Part shown: positions 1 through 6,000 of the stretch, in pieces
Numbering within the stretch: position 1 is the first letter of the stretch
How the letters are laid out: every line of letters begins with the position of its first letter
Origin: an archaeon
Lineage (GTDB): Archaea; Iainarchaeota; Iainarchaeia; Iainarchaeales; 1-14-0-10-31-34
Length of the DNA: 13,200 bases
NCBI GenBank assembly: GCA_043815885.1
Contig: JBDRIL010000007.1
Location: forward strand, 1 to 13,200
Direction: 5' to 3'
Program-made: the position numbers

Positions 1-3000
1 TTTTAGGTTGTCGTTACTGGAATCATAGTAGCTTATGTGTGGTTTGTCATTACTGTCTATTGCTATTGAGGTAAATTCTCCTACAAACCCCCCACTGTCC
101 ACTGTTTCTGTGTGCCATTGGTTTCCGTCGTGATAGGCATATTTAAGGTCTGCTCCTTTACCTGTAGAACCATAATAGCTTATGTGTGGTTTGTCATTAC
201 TGTCTAATGCAATAGAAGTATCAAGTCCCACGTTTCCTGTATTGTCTACTGTTTCTGTATTCCAAGTGCTTCCATTATAATAGGCATGTTTTAATGCAGT
301 ATTTGTGGAATCTTGATAGCTTATGTGTGGGTTATTGCTACTGTCCAAAGCAATGGATGTATAGTCTCCCACGTCTCCTTCACTATCTATTGTTTCTATG
401 TCCCAATCGCTTCCATTATAATAAGCGTATTTTAGGTCTCCGTTAGTGGAATCATAGTAGCTTATGTGTGGTTTGTCGTTGCCATCCAATGCAATAGATG
501 TAAACCACCCTACATAACCTGTGCTGTCTACTATTTCTATATTCCATTGGCTTCCGTCATGATAAGCATATTTTAGGTCTCCATTGCTACCGTCATAGTA
601 ACTTGTATGGGGGTTATCATTACTATCCAAAGCAAGAGATGGGAAAGATCCCACATAACCGTCACTATCTACAGTCTCTATATGCCACGCAAGGCCTTTA
701 TCGGTTGTGTCGGGTATTGGGTTATTGATTGGAGTTAGTTTTGCGAATCCGGTTGTAAATGTAATGCTGAGTAATAAGATTAATGAAATTAGTATTGTTG
801 AAGTGATTTTTTTATTCATGTTTTTTTATCCCTCCAGAAGAGTAAATTATTCATTAATTAATCCTGTATTAATAGTGTGGGATTATGTTTAAAAATAGGG
901 TTTTTTCTTTTAATGATTGAATTAATTGCATGGACTATTTTTTCTTTTTTATTTAAAAAATTGGTTTTATTGTTCTGCTTGTTTTTTTCTTTAATAGAAT
1001 TATTGCCCTTCGTTGTTTGACGTAATAATGAGTTTTTATTTTTTTCTATTGAATTTATGTATATAGGGGGTTGTGGGAAGAAAGTATTCTTTTTTTATGA
1101 GCAATAGGTTGTTTTTATGGCTGACACGATGCGTATTTCATTATCTTTTGCAAACGATTTAAACGCTAATGGTTTTGATTTTTTTGTGTCAGTTCCTTGT
1201 TCTTTTTTAAAGAATCTTTTGTTGGTTTTGGACAAAGAAGAGAAATTGATTTATGCTAACAGGGAAGATGAAGCTCTTGGAATGGCTTGTGGTGCTTATT
1301 TAGCTGGCAGAAAGCCTGTTGTGTTAGTACAGACTTCTGGTTTTCTTCAATTGTTGAATGGCTTGCATTCATTGAACATGATTTACGGGATTCCTGTCTT
1401 GTTGATAGTTTCTTGGCGTGGTTTTAATGGAAATGATTCCATAGAACATAAGGTTACTGGAAAGAATTTTTTGAAGATTTTGAGGGCATCAAAAATCAAT
1501 TATTTTGTTTTAAACAAAAGAAATTACCTTAATGCGTGTGGAGAAGCAAATAAATTTCTTCAAAGGAATAAACAGCCATTTGTTTTGGTTGTGAAGAAAG
1601 GTGTTTTTGGTGAATAGACAAGACGTAATTGAAATCGTATTGAAAAACACTGGAAAAAATGACTTGATTGTTTCTTGTAGTGGCTTTACTAGTAGGAGCT
1701 TGTTTTCTTTGAGAGACCGTAAAATGAATTTTTATATGCTTGGTTCAATGGGTCTTGCTAGTTCCATTGGCTTGGGATATGCTTTGTGCAAACCAAGGCA
1801 AAAAGTTTATGTTTTAGATGGTGATGCAAATATTTTAATGAATTTAGCTAGTCTTTTATCTGTAGGCAAGTTGAATCCAAAAAACTTTATTCACGTACTT
1901 TTAGATAACGAAGTTAATGAATCTACTGGCGGGCAACCAACTCTTTCAAGAGAAGTGGACATCGAAAAAATTGCTGGCATTGCTAATTACGGTTTTGTTA
2001 AAAAAGTGAAAACAATAACCCAGCTTAGAAAAGCATTAAGAACAGCAAGAAAGACAGGTCCTTCATTTATTCTTGCTAAAATTGAAATAGAAAGAATTTT
2101 CGATTGTCCGAGAATTAGTGTTGAACCAACAGAAATTTCTTCTAGAATTCGAAGGGAGTTTAAGTGAAAAGGTGTTGGAATGAAGTTGTTTGAAAACATA
2201 ACAGGAAAACCAATTATGCTGGCAGGAGCCCATAATGGCTTGAGTGCCAAAATAGTTGAAGAATGTTCATTTCATGGCGTGTGGGCAAGTGGCTTTGAGA
2301 TTTCTGCTTCGTATTGCCTGCCTGATGCCAATATCTTGTCTATGAATGAAGTTTTAAACAGGGTTAAGGAAATGGTTAGTGCCGTGAAAATCCCAATAAT
2401 TGCTGACTGTGATAATGGTTTTGGGAATGCAGTAAAAGTCATTAAAACAGTGCAAGGTTTTGAGGGAGTTGGGGTTTCAGGAATCTGTATTGAAGACAAT
2501 GTGTTTCCAAAGAGATGCAGTCTGTACAACGGCTTTAGAAGGCGTCTTGAATCAATTGAGGAATTTTCTGAAAAAATTAAAGTAGCAGTTGAAACAAAAA
2601 CTAACAACAATTTCATGCTAATTGCGAGGACAGAGGCATTAATAGCAGGCTTAGGAATGAAAGAAGCCCTAAAAAGAGCTAAAGCCTATGAAGAAGCTGG
2701 CGCAGACGCTGTTTTGATTCATTCCAAGCAAGAAAATCCATTAGAAGTCATTGAGTTTGCTGAAAAGTGGAAGGGCAGCATTCCTTTAGTTGCAGTGCCA
2801 ACCACTTATTCTTCAATTTCAGCTAAAGAACTTTATAATAAGGGCTTTAAAATCGTTATTTTTGCAAATCACGCTATAAGGTCTTCTGTTAAAGCAATGA
2901 AAAACAATTTAAGTGAATTAAAAAAAACGGGTTGCATTAGTTCCATAGAAGCCAAAATAGCTCCTGTCGAGGAAGTTTTTTCTTTGACAGGCTTGGATGA

Positions 3001-6000
3001 TTTATTGAAAAAAGAAAAAATATATCCAACTTTGAAAAACACTAAAATGTATGGAATCAATCATAAAAAAAGTGGTTAGCAAATTATGAGAAAAAAAATT
3101 AGAATTCATAATCCTTATACAGGGGATTTGTTGGCAGTATTTGATGCGCATTCAGAACAGCAAGTGAAAAAATTAATTAGTTCATCTTTTAAATACCAAA
3201 ATCGTTTAAGTATTGAAGAAAAAAGACGAATACTATTGAATAGCGCTAAAGAATTGCATAAAAGAAGAAGCGAGCTTTCAAGATTAATTACTTCTGAATC
3301 CGGTTTATGTTTAAAGGACACTGGAAATGAAGTAAAGCGAACTGTTTCTGTTATTAGGGAAGCCGTTCAACTAGCTAACAACATTGATGCAATTTCTCTC
3401 GCTGAATTTAGCGAATACAGTGACTCCAAACTAAAGATTATAGCGGAACCTTTTAATTTAATTCTTGCGGTAACTCCGTTCAATCATCCAATTAACCAGA
3501 TTGCTCACAAAATCTGTCCTGCGATTGCTGTGGGATCAAAGATTTTAGTTAAACCGTCTGAAAAGACTTTATTGTCTGCAATGGCGTTACTTGAGATTTT
3601 TTATGATAATGGTCTCAAAAAAGAGGCAGTTAGACCAATTATTATTCCAAAAGAAGAAAAAATATTTGAAAAATTAATTTCGAGTCCATTTATACAAGTA
3701 ATTGCGTTTACTGGAAGTTTTAAAACAGGAAAACTTATGAATAAATTGTTATTAAGAAATAATAGATGGAATGTCAAACAAATATATGAATTGGGGGGAA
3801 GTTCTCCATTAGTTGTAGCGGATGACGCTGACATCAAAACAGCAGTTAATGTTGCTTTATCTGTGTTCCAGCACTCTGGTCAAAGGTGTACCACGATTAG
3901 AAAAATATTTGTCTGTGAAAGTATTTTTAGTGAATTCTTGGAAAAATTTATTTCAGTTACCGGAAAATTAAGAGTAGGCAATCCTTTAAATAAAAATACT
4001 GATGTCGGAACTTTAATAGATCAAGAGGCTGCAAAAAGAGTTGAAGGCAAGGTTAAAAAAGCAATTTCTGAGGGAGCAAAGCTTGTTTTTGGCGGAAAAA
4101 GAGATGGCGCTCAATACCATCCAACGATTTTAACTGACGTTAACCCAAACTCTAATCTAATAAAAGAAGAAACATTTGGACCTGTAGCTCCAATCCTAAA
4201 AATAAAAACTATAGACGAAGCTATTAGAATTACTCTTAAACACGATTATCTTCTTGCAGGAGCAATTGTTACGAAGAGTAAAAAGAAGGCTATTCATTTA
4301 TCTGAAAATATAGGGGTAGGGCAATTTAATTGGAATGCACCGCCAAGCTATAGAAAAGAATTCGCTCCGTTTGGTGGTTTTGGGAAATCCGGTAACGGAA
4401 TTAAAGAGGGAGTAATTTTGCTTGGAAAACAATATATGAAGATTAGAACATTTTATTCACAGGGAAGGCAAGGAATATGAGTATTTTATCAGATTATTCT
4501 GTATATGGAATTAGCTCTATGGTTAGAGACTTATATATTTTAAGTGATTCTCCTCTTTCTCTTGAAAGAACTATTATTAGAAAAAAATACCCTATTAATC
4601 CTTTGCTGTTTTCAGAAATTCATGTTGTCACGGACAAAAAATTCAAGGTAGGAGACTTAGTTCTTTTTAGGTTACTTAGAAATGGTTGTTATAATGACAT
4701 GGAAACGTTATGGGGAAACCGTGTTCCCCTTAAAAAAGGAAAATATTATATAGGTGTTCTCTGTGAACGAGGGTCAACAAAATTTATAACTGCAGAGTTT
4801 TCAAGTAATAAAATTAAGAAAAACACTGTGTTTAATTTTGTTGCCCAAGGCGGGGGGATTGGAACTGCGACCGGGTATTCGCCAGCACTTAGTCAAAGAA
4901 ACTTAGGTGCACCTTATGTGAGAGTAGAAGGTTTGCTTGCAACCAAAGATGGAAAAATATTAAACATAAAGAATAATACACACTCTATTGCTAATAATAT
5001 AGGTAAAACAAAAAATATTCCGACTTTGTTAATTCTAGGAAGCGGAACAGATACTGGAAAAACTACGATTGCCTGCAAAATAATCAAGGAATTAAAACAA
5101 AAGGGGGTTTCTTGTGCGACACTCAAGGCCTCTGGGACTGGATGGTACGAAGATAGTTTAATGCACCAGAATGCCGGTGCTTTTCCTTCACTAAATTTTA
5201 CGTTTGTTGGGCTTCCTACTACCTACTATGTTCCAAAAAAAACTTATTTGAAGTATTTGAGTCGTTTGTTATCCTTTTTTTCTGATCCAAGAAGAATCCC
5301 TGAAAACTGGATTCACCCAAAACTTAGGAGAAAAAAACGAATGACTCCAGAGCTTTTGGTTATAGAGCATGGAGGAGACTTGATTTTTGCTAATATTCCT
5401 ACTTTTCTTTCAAGCAGTCAATTAATGAAAAACGTGTTTGGGATAGTTATTTGCAATGAAAGCGTAGTGAGTGTAATTGGCGCAATTAATCAGCTAAAGA
5501 AGTATCAGCCAAATAAAAACAAGAAAGTAAAAATTTATGTTTCTGCTCCAATTTCTATGAATCCAGAGGCTGTTTACAAGAGATTGGAAACTCTCCTTAG
5601 AAAAAGAATTATTTCAAGCGTCTTTGACGTGAAAAAAAACATTATTTTACAGAAAAAGAAAAGGCTGTCATGTAAAGAGTACGCAAAACATTATAAGAAT
5701 ATAGATTCTATTAAAATATTGGTTGAAAAAATTATTGCTGATGTGGGGAGGAATTGAAATGAATAAAGCTCAGTTGATTGAAGGTTCTAGGAAAGTGTTG
5801 AGTGAAAGAAAACGCGGGATAAGGGGGAAGCCGGAGAGGTCTTTCCTTAGTATTGCGGAACTATCTAAAGAAAAATTTGGGGAAATTGTTTTTGGGGGAA
5901 TTAAAGTCAAACAGAATCCTGAAAAATTTAGTCGTGCTTTGAAGGGTAAGTCTGTTGGGCTTTTGTTTCAGAAGACGTCAACTAGGACTAGGTGTTCTTT

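Follow-up and report, generated by a model that had tools for sequence, protein, structure and literature searches.

Within the window (the whole stretch of DNA that we analysed, 13,200 nucleotides), positions 1117-6733 of the + strand hold one compact operon of six genes. These encode the two subunits of a split decarboxylase that resembles Ppd and ComDE, a homologue of PEP mutase, a PhnY-like aldehyde dehydrogenase (ALDH), a P-loop protein, and an ornithine carbamoyltransferase (OTCase) (Table 1). Neighboring genes overlap or are at most 12 nt apart, and the operon is bordered by a 298-nt divergent gap on one side and by a convergent gene on the other. An earlier note had given the order as Ppd-like genes, mutase homologue, ALDH, and P-loop gene, and our ORFs and family matches agree with it. 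The note's assignment to a DPANN host also fits: for the flanking beta-CASP gene, every named homologue carries the label Diapherotrites or Iainarchaeum, and one from a Diapherotrites MAG has 67% identity. As there was no PepM-like match in the 60 relatives that we searched, the operon seems to have been acquired horizontally. A search of 214 other genomes of the phylum found no match to the P-loop protein.

Table 1. Positions of the operon's genes and of the gating-loop motif in the window.
Feature	Position	Strand	Basis
TPP decarboxylase alpha (N-terminal TPP-binding) subunit, split phosphonopyruvate/sulfopyruvate-decarboxylase family	1117..1617	+	PF02776, 41.2 bits
TPP decarboxylase beta (C-terminal TPP-binding) subunit	1601..2167	+	PF02775, 54.2 bits; overlaps alpha gene
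PEP-mutase-family protein P0001, Cys-lid type, probable PEP mutase	2180..3079	+	Pfam PEP_mutase PF13714, 192.9 bits, E = 8.3e-57
Gating-loop motif EDNVFPKRCS, residues 105-114 of P0001	2492..2521	+	translation and PDB alignments
Non-acylating PhnY-like aldehyde dehydrogenase, probable phosphonoacetaldehyde dehydrogenase	3086..4480	+	PF00171, 371.9 bits
P-loop protein P0121, 426 aa, orphan two-domain family	4477..5757	+	Walker A GTDTGKTT; DTBS/CTP-synthase/DUF1611-like C-domain
Ornithine carbamoyltransferase (OTCase), last operon gene	5759..6733 (ORF open from TTG 5723)	+	TIGR00658, 352.1 bits (cut-off 280.85)

The mutase homologue and its relatives

P0001 scores below the cut-offs of the NCBIfam models for PEP mutase (TIGR02320, 301.0 bits, cut-off 319.55), phosphonopyruvate hydrolase or PPH (TIGR02321, 268.4 bits, cut-off 374.4), and PrpB (TIGR02317, 180 bits, cut-off 354). 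Its best PDB scores are with a PPH (2dua, 253 bits) and a PEP mutase (5unc, 252.6 bits). It shares its fold and length with the canonical PEP mutases (PepM or Ppm, EC 5.4.2.9; Mytilus edulis 1m1b/1pym, Streptomyces 5unc), is 43-46% identical to them, and shows no gaps against them in the active-site region. The unusual loop that the earlier note pointed out, EDNVFPKRCS, is paired by gap-free PDB alignments with EDKTFPKDTS (2dua), EDKRFPKVNS (5unc), and EDKLFPKTNS (1m1b). Mytilus numbering, which we use below, is P0001 numbering plus 9, so N107 corresponds to K116, K111 to K120, R112 to T121, C113 to N122, and S114 to S123. All of the PepM-type residues are kept in P0001 except for K116 (Asn) and N122 (Cys): the Mg2+ ligands D58, D85, D87, and E114 are conserved, as are K120, S123, R159, and H190. 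(According to mutagenesis of the Mytilus enzyme by Dunaway-Mariano and Herzberg, N122 and the gating-loop lysines reportedly matter for catalysis.) T121 is replaced by Arg, with covarying changes L48F, H125Y, and Q130R. More broadly, 117 Cys-type and 99 canonical sequences have W44, S46, D58, D85, D87, E114, D115, K120, S123, R159, E161, H190, T217, and N239 in common, and the Cys-type proteins differ by L48F, K116N, T121R, N122C, H125Y, Q130R, F138H, and Q279V.

A Cys-type enzyme might not be a mutase at all. A lyase-like Lys-Arg-Cys would then protonate or cleave the enolate, and the decarboxylase would act on another 3-substituted pyruvate; candidate activities are hydrolysis of phosphonopyruvate or PEP and C-C cleavage of a phosphorylated 2-oxo or 2-hydroxy acid. 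We consider this unlikely. The Lys-Arg-Cys loop is indeed common to the Cys-type proteins and to 2-methylisocitrate and isocitrate lyases (PrpB; K[KR]CGH), including our lyase outgroups (EDQVGAKRCGH in E. coli PrpB, EDQVEPKRCG in L181 and L182). However, the four outgroups carry Y43, Gly-His after the Cys, and E188 at positions where Cys-type and canonical proteins differ from them, and P0001 lacks all of these partners of the Cys, with the PepM/PPH residues W44, S-L/F, and H190 there instead. As for a hydrolase, PPH (PalA; 2dua) shares the PepM-type residues, and the Asn at position 122, which distinguishes the mutase from the hydrolase (Thr or Ser in PPH-type sequences, EDKxFPKD[TS]S), is lost in PPH and P0001 alike. 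But PPH retains K116 and has Asp-Thr in its loop. PPH acts in a catabolic route alongside a transaminase and not a decarboxylase, and the Cys-type proteins are co-encoded with, and sometimes fused to, a decarboxylase whose substrate a hydrolase would use up.

Phylogeny also bears on this question. In a FastTree of 157 sequences, a derived clade of 108 (support 84) takes in 96 of 97 canonical sequences and 12 others, with the remaining canonical sequence just outside. In a quick IQ-TREE analysis of 86 sequences, including four lyase outgroups, the family has support of 100, and a single 40-member clade with support of 97 and without any Cys sequence includes all 28 sampled canonical sequences; PPH-type sequences nest within the canonical clade. 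The non-Lys sequences, Cys and Asn alike, are basal and interleaved, and P0001 branches below the canonical clade; the proteins closest to it have EDNIFPKRNS and are 55% identical. Thus, what the earlier note took for one overlooked clade is, in the rooted trees, a basal paraphyletic grade. That Cys and Asn forms mix among close relatives (the starred branches force at least three changes) argues against a separate, non-mutase function for the Cys form. As canonical EDK..NS is derived and the lyase outgroups have EDQ...KRCGH, the Cys looks ancestral, with a root that depends on those four outgroups and on quick tree methods. The loop EDN.FPKRCS would then retain the K-R-C of isocitrate-lyase-type ancestors, and canonical EDK.FPK.NS would mark a later clade.

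Among the 120 best homologues, we found the 6 with Lys and Asn and the 8 with Asn at both positions that had been counted before; of the rest, all but one rather than all but two have the Cys (105 Cys, 1 Ser). Fused forms had been noted as well, and 23 of the 120 have at least 400 aa, with the mutase domain N-terminal; one homologue (P0111) is fused with TPP_enzyme_N. We then classified 80 bacterial loci by motif pattern: 72 are Cys-type, 2 have EDNIFPKRNS, 1 has EDKRFPKLNS, and the pattern missed 5 (no fewer than 33 carry a Binatia label, so the genomes are not independent). A PntC-like domain is present in 76 loci, mostly fused to the mutase domain. Ppd alpha and/or beta lies within just 15 of the 80 (Minicystis rosea included, as the earlier note had it, with a total of 14), which, like the TIGR02320 score, fits a non-mutase. 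Two relatives that lack the Lys and retain the Asn (L057 and L072) sit in a classical PepM-Ppd context, with Ppd over the cut-off (429.6 and 373.3 bits), followed by an Fe-ADH, a nucleotidyltransferase, and a flippase.

Genome content argues for C-P bond formation. In each of the 48 bacterial genomes that carry such a gene, there is a single strong PepM-family match, never over the TIGR02320 cut-off (three have an additional weak lyase-like match). A Ppd-family match is present in 43 of these genomes vs. 3 of 14 control genomes; the 5 without it include an 11.1-Mb Streptomyces genome. In both Binatia genomes that we checked (G092 and G084), a second locus reads MlaA-MlaC-MMPL-Ppd alpha-Ppd beta-AepZ-NTP_transf_3, with AepZ (TIGR03301) at 364.5 and 380.6, respectively (cut-off 360.8), and these genomes hold no other PepM homologue. 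Together with the PepM-type residues, these comparisons favor the C-P bond-forming role that the earlier note had proposed, and P0001 is probably a PEP mutase.

The split decarboxylase and the dehydrogenase

The alpha subunit scores 111.5 bits against the ComD model (TIGR03845) and 105 bits against the Ppd model (TIGR03297), and the beta subunit scores 179.9 bits against the Ppd model and 162.4 bits against TIGR03846; each score is under its cut-off. By identity, the alpha subunit is 42% identical to a split Ppd alpha subunit from Binatia that adjoins AepZ, and the beta subunit is 47% identical to a Binatia Ppd beta subunit. For the ALDH, which has the motifs ELGG, GQRC, and FNHP, the best NCBIfam model is PhnY (TIGR03250, 388.4 bits, far under the cut-off of 635.65), and SafD gives 303 bits. 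Its best PDB entry is 4i3t (260 bits), which we take to be PhnY. The FNHP, GQRC, and YR positions are common to both proteins, and this comparison with the best solved relative is consistent with the phosphonoacetate-type product that had been suggested.

Could this be a sulfonate operon, in which sulfoacetate arises through a sulfopyruvate decarboxylase of the ComDE type and a dehydrogenase like SafD, and the mutase homologue supplies or handles sulfopyruvate? The alpha subunit's slight preference for ComD and the ALDH's match to SafD point that way, as does a related locus on a Priestia plasmid, where the TPP subunits score higher as ComDE (128 and 172 bits) than as Ppd (86 and 137 bits) and there is an SsuD-like monooxygenase (344 bits). 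But the beta subunit is best on Ppd and the ALDH is best on PhnY, and we know of no enzyme of the PEP-mutase fold that makes sulfopyruvate. Also, relatives of P0001 are fused to, or lie next to, enzymes that require a phosphonate (PntC-like nucleotidyltransferases and AepZ), and the Ppd and P-loop module accompanies canonical PepMs (see below). We therefore regard a sulfonate product as very improbable.

The P-loop protein and the carbamoyltransferase

P0121 has no match over cut-off in Pfam or NCBIfam (in Pfam, only a weak match to MobB; bioD 21 bits vs. a cut-off of 83). It had been described as belonging to no family, which does not hold: there are about 34 homologues at the cluster level, and the fold is like that of DTBS and DUF1611. 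In its structure model (pLDDT 91.8), the C-domain matches dethiobiotin synthetase (DTBS, 3of5, Z 15.0), CTP synthase (7dpt, Z 14.3), TM0796 (2g0t, Z 13.6), and DgcN (7xrj, Z 12.4), and whole-length neighbors in the Atlas are DUF1611-like. P0121 resembles the synthetase domains of these proteins in its fold and in its Walker A of the GTxTxxGKT type, but it differs in lying under every sequence-model cut-off, in the conserved motifs of its own family (KASGTGWYEDS, GLPTTY, and EHGGDL), and in its beta-rich N-terminal domain.

The OTCase has canonical motifs (STRTR, HPCQ, SMG, and HCLP). It is the genome's second, 41.5% identical to the other OTCase (G000:C14), which matches copies of its own family at 62-70% identity. 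The operon's copy is closest (52% identity) to OTCases of the ordinary kind from other DPANN genomes. (One of these adjoins an ORF whose start we read by eye as argG-like.)

The P-loop gene and the OTCase might be unrelated neighbors in a compact genome, so that only PepM, Ppd, and ALDH form a pathway. DPANN genomes are gene-dense, the OTCase looks ordinary by its score, motifs, and closest relatives, and neither protein has a homologue in any of the 80 bacterial loci. On the other hand, a gene of the P-loop family lies 3' of the split Ppd in all three loci with readable context, and an OTCase-like gene is present in two of the three. In L083, a canonical PepM (EDKQFPKINS; TIGR02320, 320.6 bits, over cut-off) and a split Ppd are followed by a P-loop homologue with 45% identity. 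The Priestia plasmid (L149) has an OTCase-like gene, an ATP-grasp gene, the split TPP enzyme, a P-loop-like gene (30% identity), further genes, and a canonical PepM (EDKVFPKLNS). This recurrence behind canonical PepMs also supports C-P bond formation. Given that the genome already has another OTCase, and that the operon copy's ATG lies 1 nt past the P-loop stop codon, we find an accidental juxtaposition improbable, if somewhat less so than a sulfonate product.

What the two proteins do is a guess from three loci. The P-loop enzyme may modify the product using a nucleotide, perhaps by activating a carboxylate and joining it to an amine, and the OTCase may be tied to this step or to its product. 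Phaseolotoxin of Pseudomonas syringae is said to inhibit OTCase, with a resistant OTCase (ArgK) for self-defence. That system likewise has an OTCase gene within a small-molecule biosynthetic cluster, and the Priestia locus also encodes ATP-grasp ligases and an M20 amidohydrolase. However, the biosynthetic genes are not homologous, and in our case a C-P compound would serve as the warhead. By this analogy, we conjecture that the operon's product inhibits OTCase.

Proposed pathway and motif filters

Gene order, motifs, residue conservation, tree shape, and genome co-occurrence were observed here, and we infer the reactions as follows. Phosphonopyruvate would be made from PEP by the PEP mutase homologue and turned into phosphonoacetaldehyde by the split TPP decarboxylase, which would pull the unfavorable equilibrium; the PhnY-like dehydrogenase would then oxidize the aldehyde to phosphonoacetate. 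Canonical PEP mutases are likewise coupled to Ppd-family decarboxylases, and relatives of P0001 are fused to PntC-like nucleotidyltransferases. A route from PepM through Ppd and an ALDH to phosphonoacetate-derived products has been published, and the same three enzyme types are together in this operon. The differences are the archaeal host, the split Ppd, the non-canonical mutase, and an orphan P-loop enzyme and OTCase next to them in place of known tailoring genes. Judging from sequence comparisons, it is quite likely that 1117-6733 is a horizontally acquired phosphonate operon of six genes in a Diapherotrites/Iainarchaeota (DPANN) archaeon, with a genuine PEP mutase from the early-branching grade.

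Our literature search found no description of a member of the Cys-type group. The earlier note held that motif-filtered surveys overlook it, and passages in four published surveys bear this out, as all of them require EDKX5NS (Rice 2019, PMC6697681; Li & Horsman 2022; Acker 2022; a 2025 survey in RSC Chem Biol). If proteins like P0001 are PEP mutases, these surveys would discard a large group of PEP mutases that branch early, because the loop is EDN..RCS and not EDK..NS.

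The operon and its setting

The six genes of the operon lie on one strand, where neighboring genes either overlap or are no more than 12 nt apart, and the ATG of the sixth gene is 1 nt past the stop codon of the fifth. The operon is bordered by a 298-nt divergent gap on the 5' side and by a convergent gene on the 3' side. The G+C content is 31–39% throughout the 13.2-kb window, and the named homologues of the neighboring beta-CASP gene are all labeled Candidatus Diapherotrites or Iainarchaeum (the best is 67% identical). The mutase homologue has no match in 60 genomes from the family and order of the host (G000; 1.16 Mb in 62 contigs), and the family of the P-loop protein gave no match in another 214 genomes of the phylum, so it appears that the operon was acquired horizontally. 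Its parts differ in their nearest relatives: that of the mutase is a CPR-type protein, and the ornithine carbamoyltransferase (OTCase) is of DPANN type. We consider it very probable that this is a genuine phosphonate operon, of the phosphonoacetate type, gained by horizontal transfer.

Features discussed in the text (G, genomes; C, contigs; L, loci)
Feature	Location	Strand	Remark
Ppd-like alpha subunit	window 1117-1617	+	phosphonopyruvate decarboxylase (Ppd), split
Ppd-like beta subunit	window 1601-2167	+
PEP-mutase homologue	window 2180-3079	+	P0001
Aldehyde dehydrogenase	window 3086-4480	+
P-loop protein	window 4477-5757	+	P0121, 426 aa
OTCase	window 5759-6733	+
beta-CASP ribonuclease	window 7321-8580	+	419 aa; putative short aCPSF-like form without N-terminal domains
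ORF	window 8615-9415	+	266 aa
Protein with peptidase-like matches	window 10890-11531	-	213 aa
ORF	window 11694-12254	-	186 aa
ORF	window 12238-13173	-	311 aa
Second OTCase of the host	G000:C14:20744-21658	-
Carbamate kinase of the host	G000:C62:1683-2612	+
Ppd-AepZ-PntC-like locus, Binatia	G092:C1:1866000-1884500		L176
Ppd-AepZ-PntC-like locus, Binatia	G084:C32:287000-305000		L179
Squalene-hopene-cyclase-like protein	L077:1719-2690		about 321 aa
Squalene-hopene-cyclase-like protein	L179:5032-6024		beside Ppd-AepZ-PntC
P-loop family member, then adenylation enzyme	L084:234-3469		metagenome contig of 4.4 kb
Priestia megaterium plasmid cluster	NZ_CP085446.1:79732-98502		L149

The alpha subunit of the decarboxylase (TPP_enzyme_N) scores 111.5 bits on the ComD-type model TIGR03845 (cut-off 147.95) and 105 bits on the Ppd model TIGR03297. 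The beta subunit (TPP_enzyme_C) scores 179.9 bits on TIGR03297 and 162.4 bits on the ComE-type model TIGR03846 (cut-off 221.5). The TIGR03297 cut-off of 312.5 is set for fused Ppd, and the window enzyme is split in two. For the aldehyde dehydrogenase, the top model is PhnY (TIGR03250, 388.4 bits, under the cut-off of 635.65), followed by lactaldehyde dehydrogenase (349 bits) and SafD (303 bits). Its FNHP, GQRC, and YR positions align with those of 4i3t, which we take to be the phosphonate-binding His/Arg residues of PhnY.

Among the genes beyond the operon, the beta-CASP protein matches aCPSF1 only from model position 176 onward (342 bits, cut-off 580), and the type VII CRISPR Cas14 model gives it 285 bits. 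No Pfam or NCBIfam match over cut-off was obtained for three ORFs (266, 311, and 186 aa), and for a 213-aa protein the matches are weak (Peptidase_C39_2 and phytochelatin-synthase-like).

A mutase homologue with cysteine in the gating loop

The mutase homologue clearly belongs to PF13714 (192.9 bits, cut-off 31.5, with 232 of 240 profile positions covered). On the PEP mutase model (TIGR02320, EC 5.4.2.9) it scores 301.0, under the cut-off of 319.55. The loop reported in the earlier note, EDNVFPKRCS, is indeed at residues 105–114 of the translation, and it aligns without gaps to EDKTFPKDTS of phosphonopyruvate hydrolase (PPH; 2dua, 253 bits) and to EDKRFPKVNS and EDKLFPKTNS of PepM (5unc, 252.6 bits; 1m1b, 218.5 bits). 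Thus, the diagnostic motif EDKX5NS is replaced at two positions, Lys by Asn and Asn by Cys. The protein does not qualify as a PPH, given its score on TIGR02321 (268.4 vs. 374.4) and a loop unlike EDKxFPKD[TS]S, and its score on the PrpB model is 180.2 bits, under the cut-off of 354.4.

Most of the close relatives share the Cys. Among the 120 best homologues, the earlier counts of 6 with Lys and Asn and 8 with Asn at both positions were reproduced, while Cys is found in 105 and Ser in one, rather than Cys in all but two of the remainder. Similarly, nearly all of the 80 bacterial loci are non-Lys and Cys as had been claimed, with a small correction: 72 are Cys-type (EDN..RCS), two read EDNIFPKRNS, one reads EDKRFPKLNS, and five were unmatched by the pattern. 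The usual bacterial form is a fusion (about 560 aa) in which NTP_transf_3 follows the mutase domain, and some members of the group are already automatically annotated as phosphoenolpyruvate mutase.

We compared 260 aligned family members (117 Cys-type, 35 non-Lys with Asn, 99 canonical, and 9 other), using Mytilus PepM numbering (query numbering plus 9). W44, S46, D58, D85, D87, E114, D115, K120, S123, R159, E161, H190, T217, and N239 are as fully conserved in the Cys-type proteins as in the canonical ones. Eight of these (D58, D85, D87, E114, K120, S123, R159, and H190), presumably the metal- and phosphoryl-binding residues, are all present in the query and are each found in 115–117 of the 117 Cys-type sequences. 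The class-specific changes in the Cys-type are L48F, K116N, T121R, N122C, H125Y, Q130R, F138H, and Q279V.

A second possibility is that these proteins are lyases, as the Lys-Arg-Cys of the loop resembles that of isocitrate and methylisocitrate lyases. This likeness, raised in the earlier note, is real as far as those three residues go. However, the query continues with Ser-Leu and has His 190 and Trp 44. The outgroups, all four lyase-type (E. coli PrpB plus three weak second matches from Binatia genomes), have the loop EDQ...KRCGH, Tyr at 43/44, and Glu at 188/190; we assume that Tyr43, the Gly-His, and Glu188 are the residues that work with the catalytic Cys in lyases. At these partner positions, the Cys-type proteins have Trp, Ser-Leu/Phe, and His, as do PepM and PPH, so only the Lys-Arg-Cys is lyase-like. 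We consider it likely that the first enzyme of the operon is a PEP mutase with a non-canonical, Cys-type lid.

The non-canonical proteins had been described as a clade, but they form a paraphyletic grade, because Cys and Asn non-Lys sequences interleave below the canonical clade. Our trees draw on 744 representatives (E ≤ 1e-30), of which the best 150 were used, and were made by quick methods with one outgroup set. The FastTree phylogeny (157 rows, PrpB as root) places the non-Lys forms at the base. Of the 97 canonical rows, 96 fall, along with 12 other rows, into a derived group of 108 (support 84) within which PPH-type rows are nested; the remaining canonical row lies just outside. A quick IQ-TREE analysis of 86 rows (all of the non-canonical rows, a random 28 of the 97 canonical ones, and four outgroups) gave support of 100 for the family and placed 28/28 canonical rows in one clade of 40 (support 97), with no Cys row inside. 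The starred branches of this tree force at least three changes of the Cys label. The nearest rows to the query are EDNIFPKRNS proteins (55% identity), one of which is labeled Patescibacteria; this grouping had support of 94 and 89 and is not starred. As the lyase outgroups read KRC, the Cys of the gating loop would most simply be the ancestral state. Ser forms (EDN.FPKRSS) exist, and they are expected because the path between Cys and Asn codons takes two steps.

Is the Cys-type protein the only enzyme that could begin a phosphonate pathway in its hosts? We searched 48 of the 80 bacterial genomes for the PepM and Ppd families. Every one had exactly one strong PepM-family match (three carry an extra weak, lyase-like match), and none reached the TIGR02320 cut-off; the highest score, 314, was from the single canonical EDK protein. 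A Ppd family member is present in 43/48 genomes, fused and over cut-off in 12 and otherwise split with scores like those in the window; by comparison, 3 of 14 controls had a match. Of the 80 loci themselves, 15 contain Ppd alpha or beta (the earlier note had 14 with either one up to 3 kb downstream), and the 80 also include PntC-like domains (76), AepZ-like proteins (5), and one aldehyde dehydrogenase homologue (in L076, which is canonical), with no homologue of the P-loop protein or of the OTCase. The genomes are kin, with Binatia labels on at least 33 of the 80 loci, so these counts are not independent trials.

A step that consumes phosphonopyruvate can also be found close to the mutase: Ppd adjoins it in the window, and one homologue is fused to TPP_enzyme_N. 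An acidobacterial locus has the mutase fusion, Ppd, and a CDP-alcohol phosphatidyltransferase. Two EDNIFPKRNS loci (L057 and L072) have the PepM-like gene, Ppd (over cut-off), an iron-dependent alcohol dehydrogenase (Fe-ADH), a nucleotidyltransferase, and a flippase; the top model for the Fe-ADH is the phosphonate-linked PsrA type (189 and 204 bits, under cut-off). In Binatia, the decarboxylase is away from the mutase locus. Two Binatia genomes have the order MlaA-MlaC-MMPL-Ppd alpha-Ppd beta-aminotransferase-NTP_transf_3, far from the mutase-nucleotidyltransferase fusion, with aminotransferases over the AepZ cut-off (TIGR03301, 364.5 in G092 and 380.6 in G084 vs. 360.8). The company of MlaA, MlaC, and MMPL suggests that a phosphonolipid may be exported to the outer membrane. 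Judging by gene content, the Binatia and acidobacterial pathways appear to be of the aminoethylphosphonate or phosphonolipid type, and the only candidate for their first enzyme is the Cys-type protein.

As a separate observation, a protein with a weak match to the squalene-hopene-cyclase C-terminal repeat (38–46 bits) follows the mutase fusion in 40 of the 80 loci.

The P-loop protein and the ornithine carbamoyltransferase

The P-loop protein was said to be of no family. It is true that no sequence model matches over cut-off: there is only a weak MobB/BioD P-loop match, the dethiobiotin synthetase (DTBS) model TIGR00347 (bioD) gives 21.4 (cut-off 83.3), and DUF1611 (PF07755) has no match at E ≤ 0.01. 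But there are 34 cluster-level homologues (E ≤ 3e-48), from records as diverse as Scytonema sp. PCC 10023, Pandoraea terrae, Micrarchaeota, Ktedonobacteraceae, and Korobacteraceae, along with two distant DUF1611/CbiA proteins, and the family has the invariant motifs GTATDVGKTT, KASGTGWYEDS, GLPTTY, and EHGGDL. In an AlphaFold model built from the homologue alignment (pLDDT 91.8), the top fold match of residues 176–426 is dethiobiotin synthetase (3of5, Z 15.0, rmsd 3.5, 193 residues aligned), followed by CTP synthase (7dpt, Z 14.3), other DTBS entries (Z 14.0–14.2), the DUF1611 protein TM0796 (Z 13.6), and DgcN (Z 12.4), with other SIMIBI NTPases close behind (Z about 13). The whole-length Atlas neighbors (TM 0.72–0.75) are DUF1611-like hypothetical proteins. 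The likeness to DTBS and DUF1611 is real at the level of the fold. Both DTBS and CTP synthase add an amine after they have phosphorylated an oxyanion, so our guess is that P0121 activates a substrate and joins an amine.

The family is rare. It is absent from the 48 mutase-holding genomes (which gave five weak DUF1611-like matches) and from 401 Acidobacteriota genomes, and a plasmid collection gave one distant member and one DUF1611 protein. A metagenome scan gave 60 loci, of which L083 and L084 alone cover most of the protein; the others match at the Walker A only. In L084, a stand-alone amino-acid adenylation enzyme (TIGR01733, 333 bits) lies after the family member, and no PepM is visible on this short contig.

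Neighborhoods could be read for three loci (the window, L083, and L149). L083 has two L-amino-acid-ligase ATP-grasps, an MFS transporter, and an Asp/Arg-hydroxylase-like gene, and then a canonical PepM (EDKQFPKINS; TIGR02320 320.6 bits, over cut-off), a split Ppd, the P-loop homologue (45% identity), and a transposase. L149, whose IS6-bounded part spans 85.4–94.2 kb of the plasmid, lies between two IS6 copies and has, in order, MFS, an OTCase-like protein, an ATP-grasp, a split ComDE/Ppd-like TPP enzyme, a P-loop-like protein (30% identity), a second ATP-grasp, an M20 amidohydrolase, an SsuD-like monooxygenase, and a canonical PepM (EDKVFPKLNS). By its gene content, L149 looks like an undescribed phosphonopeptide cluster. 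Thus, the module of split Ppd and P-loop protein is served twice by a canonical PepM and once by a Cys-type protein, which argues that the Cys-type protein does the job of the canonical enzyme.

An OTCase-type gene is present in two of these three loci, a suggestive association. The window OTCase is over cut-off (TIGR00658, 352.1 vs. 280.85) and has all four canonical motifs (STRTR, HPCQ, SMG, and HCLP); the Priestia protein is under the cut-offs and has altered ornithine-site motifs (STRTN, DME, and HDMP). A search of the host genome gave two OTCases and, besides these, one ATCase-like match. Identity between the two OTCases is 41.5%. The window copy is at most 52% identical to those from other families of the order, while the other copy is 62–70% identical to OTCases from genomes of the host's own family. 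We considered whether two OTCases imply resistance, but this idea is weakened because both are over cut-off and the window copy is the canonical one; the odd one (SLRTR/SYH/NCLP) is typical of its family. We also judged it unlikely, by inference on chemical grounds, that the OTCase transfers an acyl group. The host has a carbamate kinase, and we found neither argininosuccinate synthase nor arginine deiminase in its genome (91.7% completeness); it may gain ATP from citrulline.

The recurrence of an OTCase-type gene with so rare a family leads us to a conjecture, which we think improbable as a whole: the operon and its relatives in L083 and Priestia would yield a phosphonoacetyl-amine as a natural product. 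With ATP, the P-loop enzyme would activate phosphonoacetate and couple it to ornithine at the side-chain amine, which would give N5-phosphonoacetyl-L-ornithine (PALO). The OTCase would be the producer's spare or insensitive target, by analogy with ArgK for phaseolotoxin, or would supply ornithine. In the bacterial versions, ATP-grasp ligases would extend the warhead to a Trojan-horse peptide. Finally, the Cys-type mutases would be surviving intermediates that link isocitrate-lyase-type enzymes with the canonical enzymes that form C-P bonds. To our knowledge, PALO has so far been only a synthetic bisubstrate inhibitor of ornithine carbamoyltransferase. A literature search found no natural PALO and no OTCase-linked phosphonate cluster; in the accessible part of the Flavophos preprint, phosphonoacetyl-CoA alone is mentioned in this regard.

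Counting phosphonate producers

The claim that motif-filtered surveys miss these proteins holds up: in their accessible passages, Rice 2019 (PMC6697681), Li & Horsman 2022, Acker 2022, and a 2025 RSC Chem Biol survey all require EDKX5NS when counting phosphonate producers. The Flavophos preprint, as far as it is accessible, checks for "the correct sequence motif," and the available part of Lockwood 2022 does not mention the motif. Of the query and the 150 best 50%-identity representatives, 94/151 have EDKX5NS, 52 depart from it (21 Cys-type, 24 non-Lys with Asn, 3 PPH-type, and 4 other), and five were unmatched by the pattern. Searches for motif variants and PepM-like enzymes, in open-access literature, found no description of the Cys-type group. 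Two leads were set aside: for the PepM-like enzyme of arseno-organic (bisenarsan) synthesis, the passages available assign the C-As step to a phosphoglycerate-mutase homologue (PMC12159101, PMC4943196), and the C. difficile "pepM homolog" has no bearing here, from what is accessible of PMC8861647.

The operon matters for the counting of phosphonate producers and for the evolution of C-P bond formation. If the non-Lys grade makes C-P bonds, then estimates of phosphonate producers are too low and would have to grow by such lineages as Binatia, Polyangia, Planctomycetota, Acidobacteriota, and a DPANN archaeon. The last two genes of the operon hint at undescribed tailoring chemistry, and the tie of the P-loop family to Ppd, together with the recurring OTCase, points to an undescribed branch of phosphonate tailoring. 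Also, the rooted trees suggest how C-P bond formation arose, as the basal forms keep the Lys-Arg-Cys of the lyases, and the transition from lyase to mutase could be tested with swaps of one or two residues.
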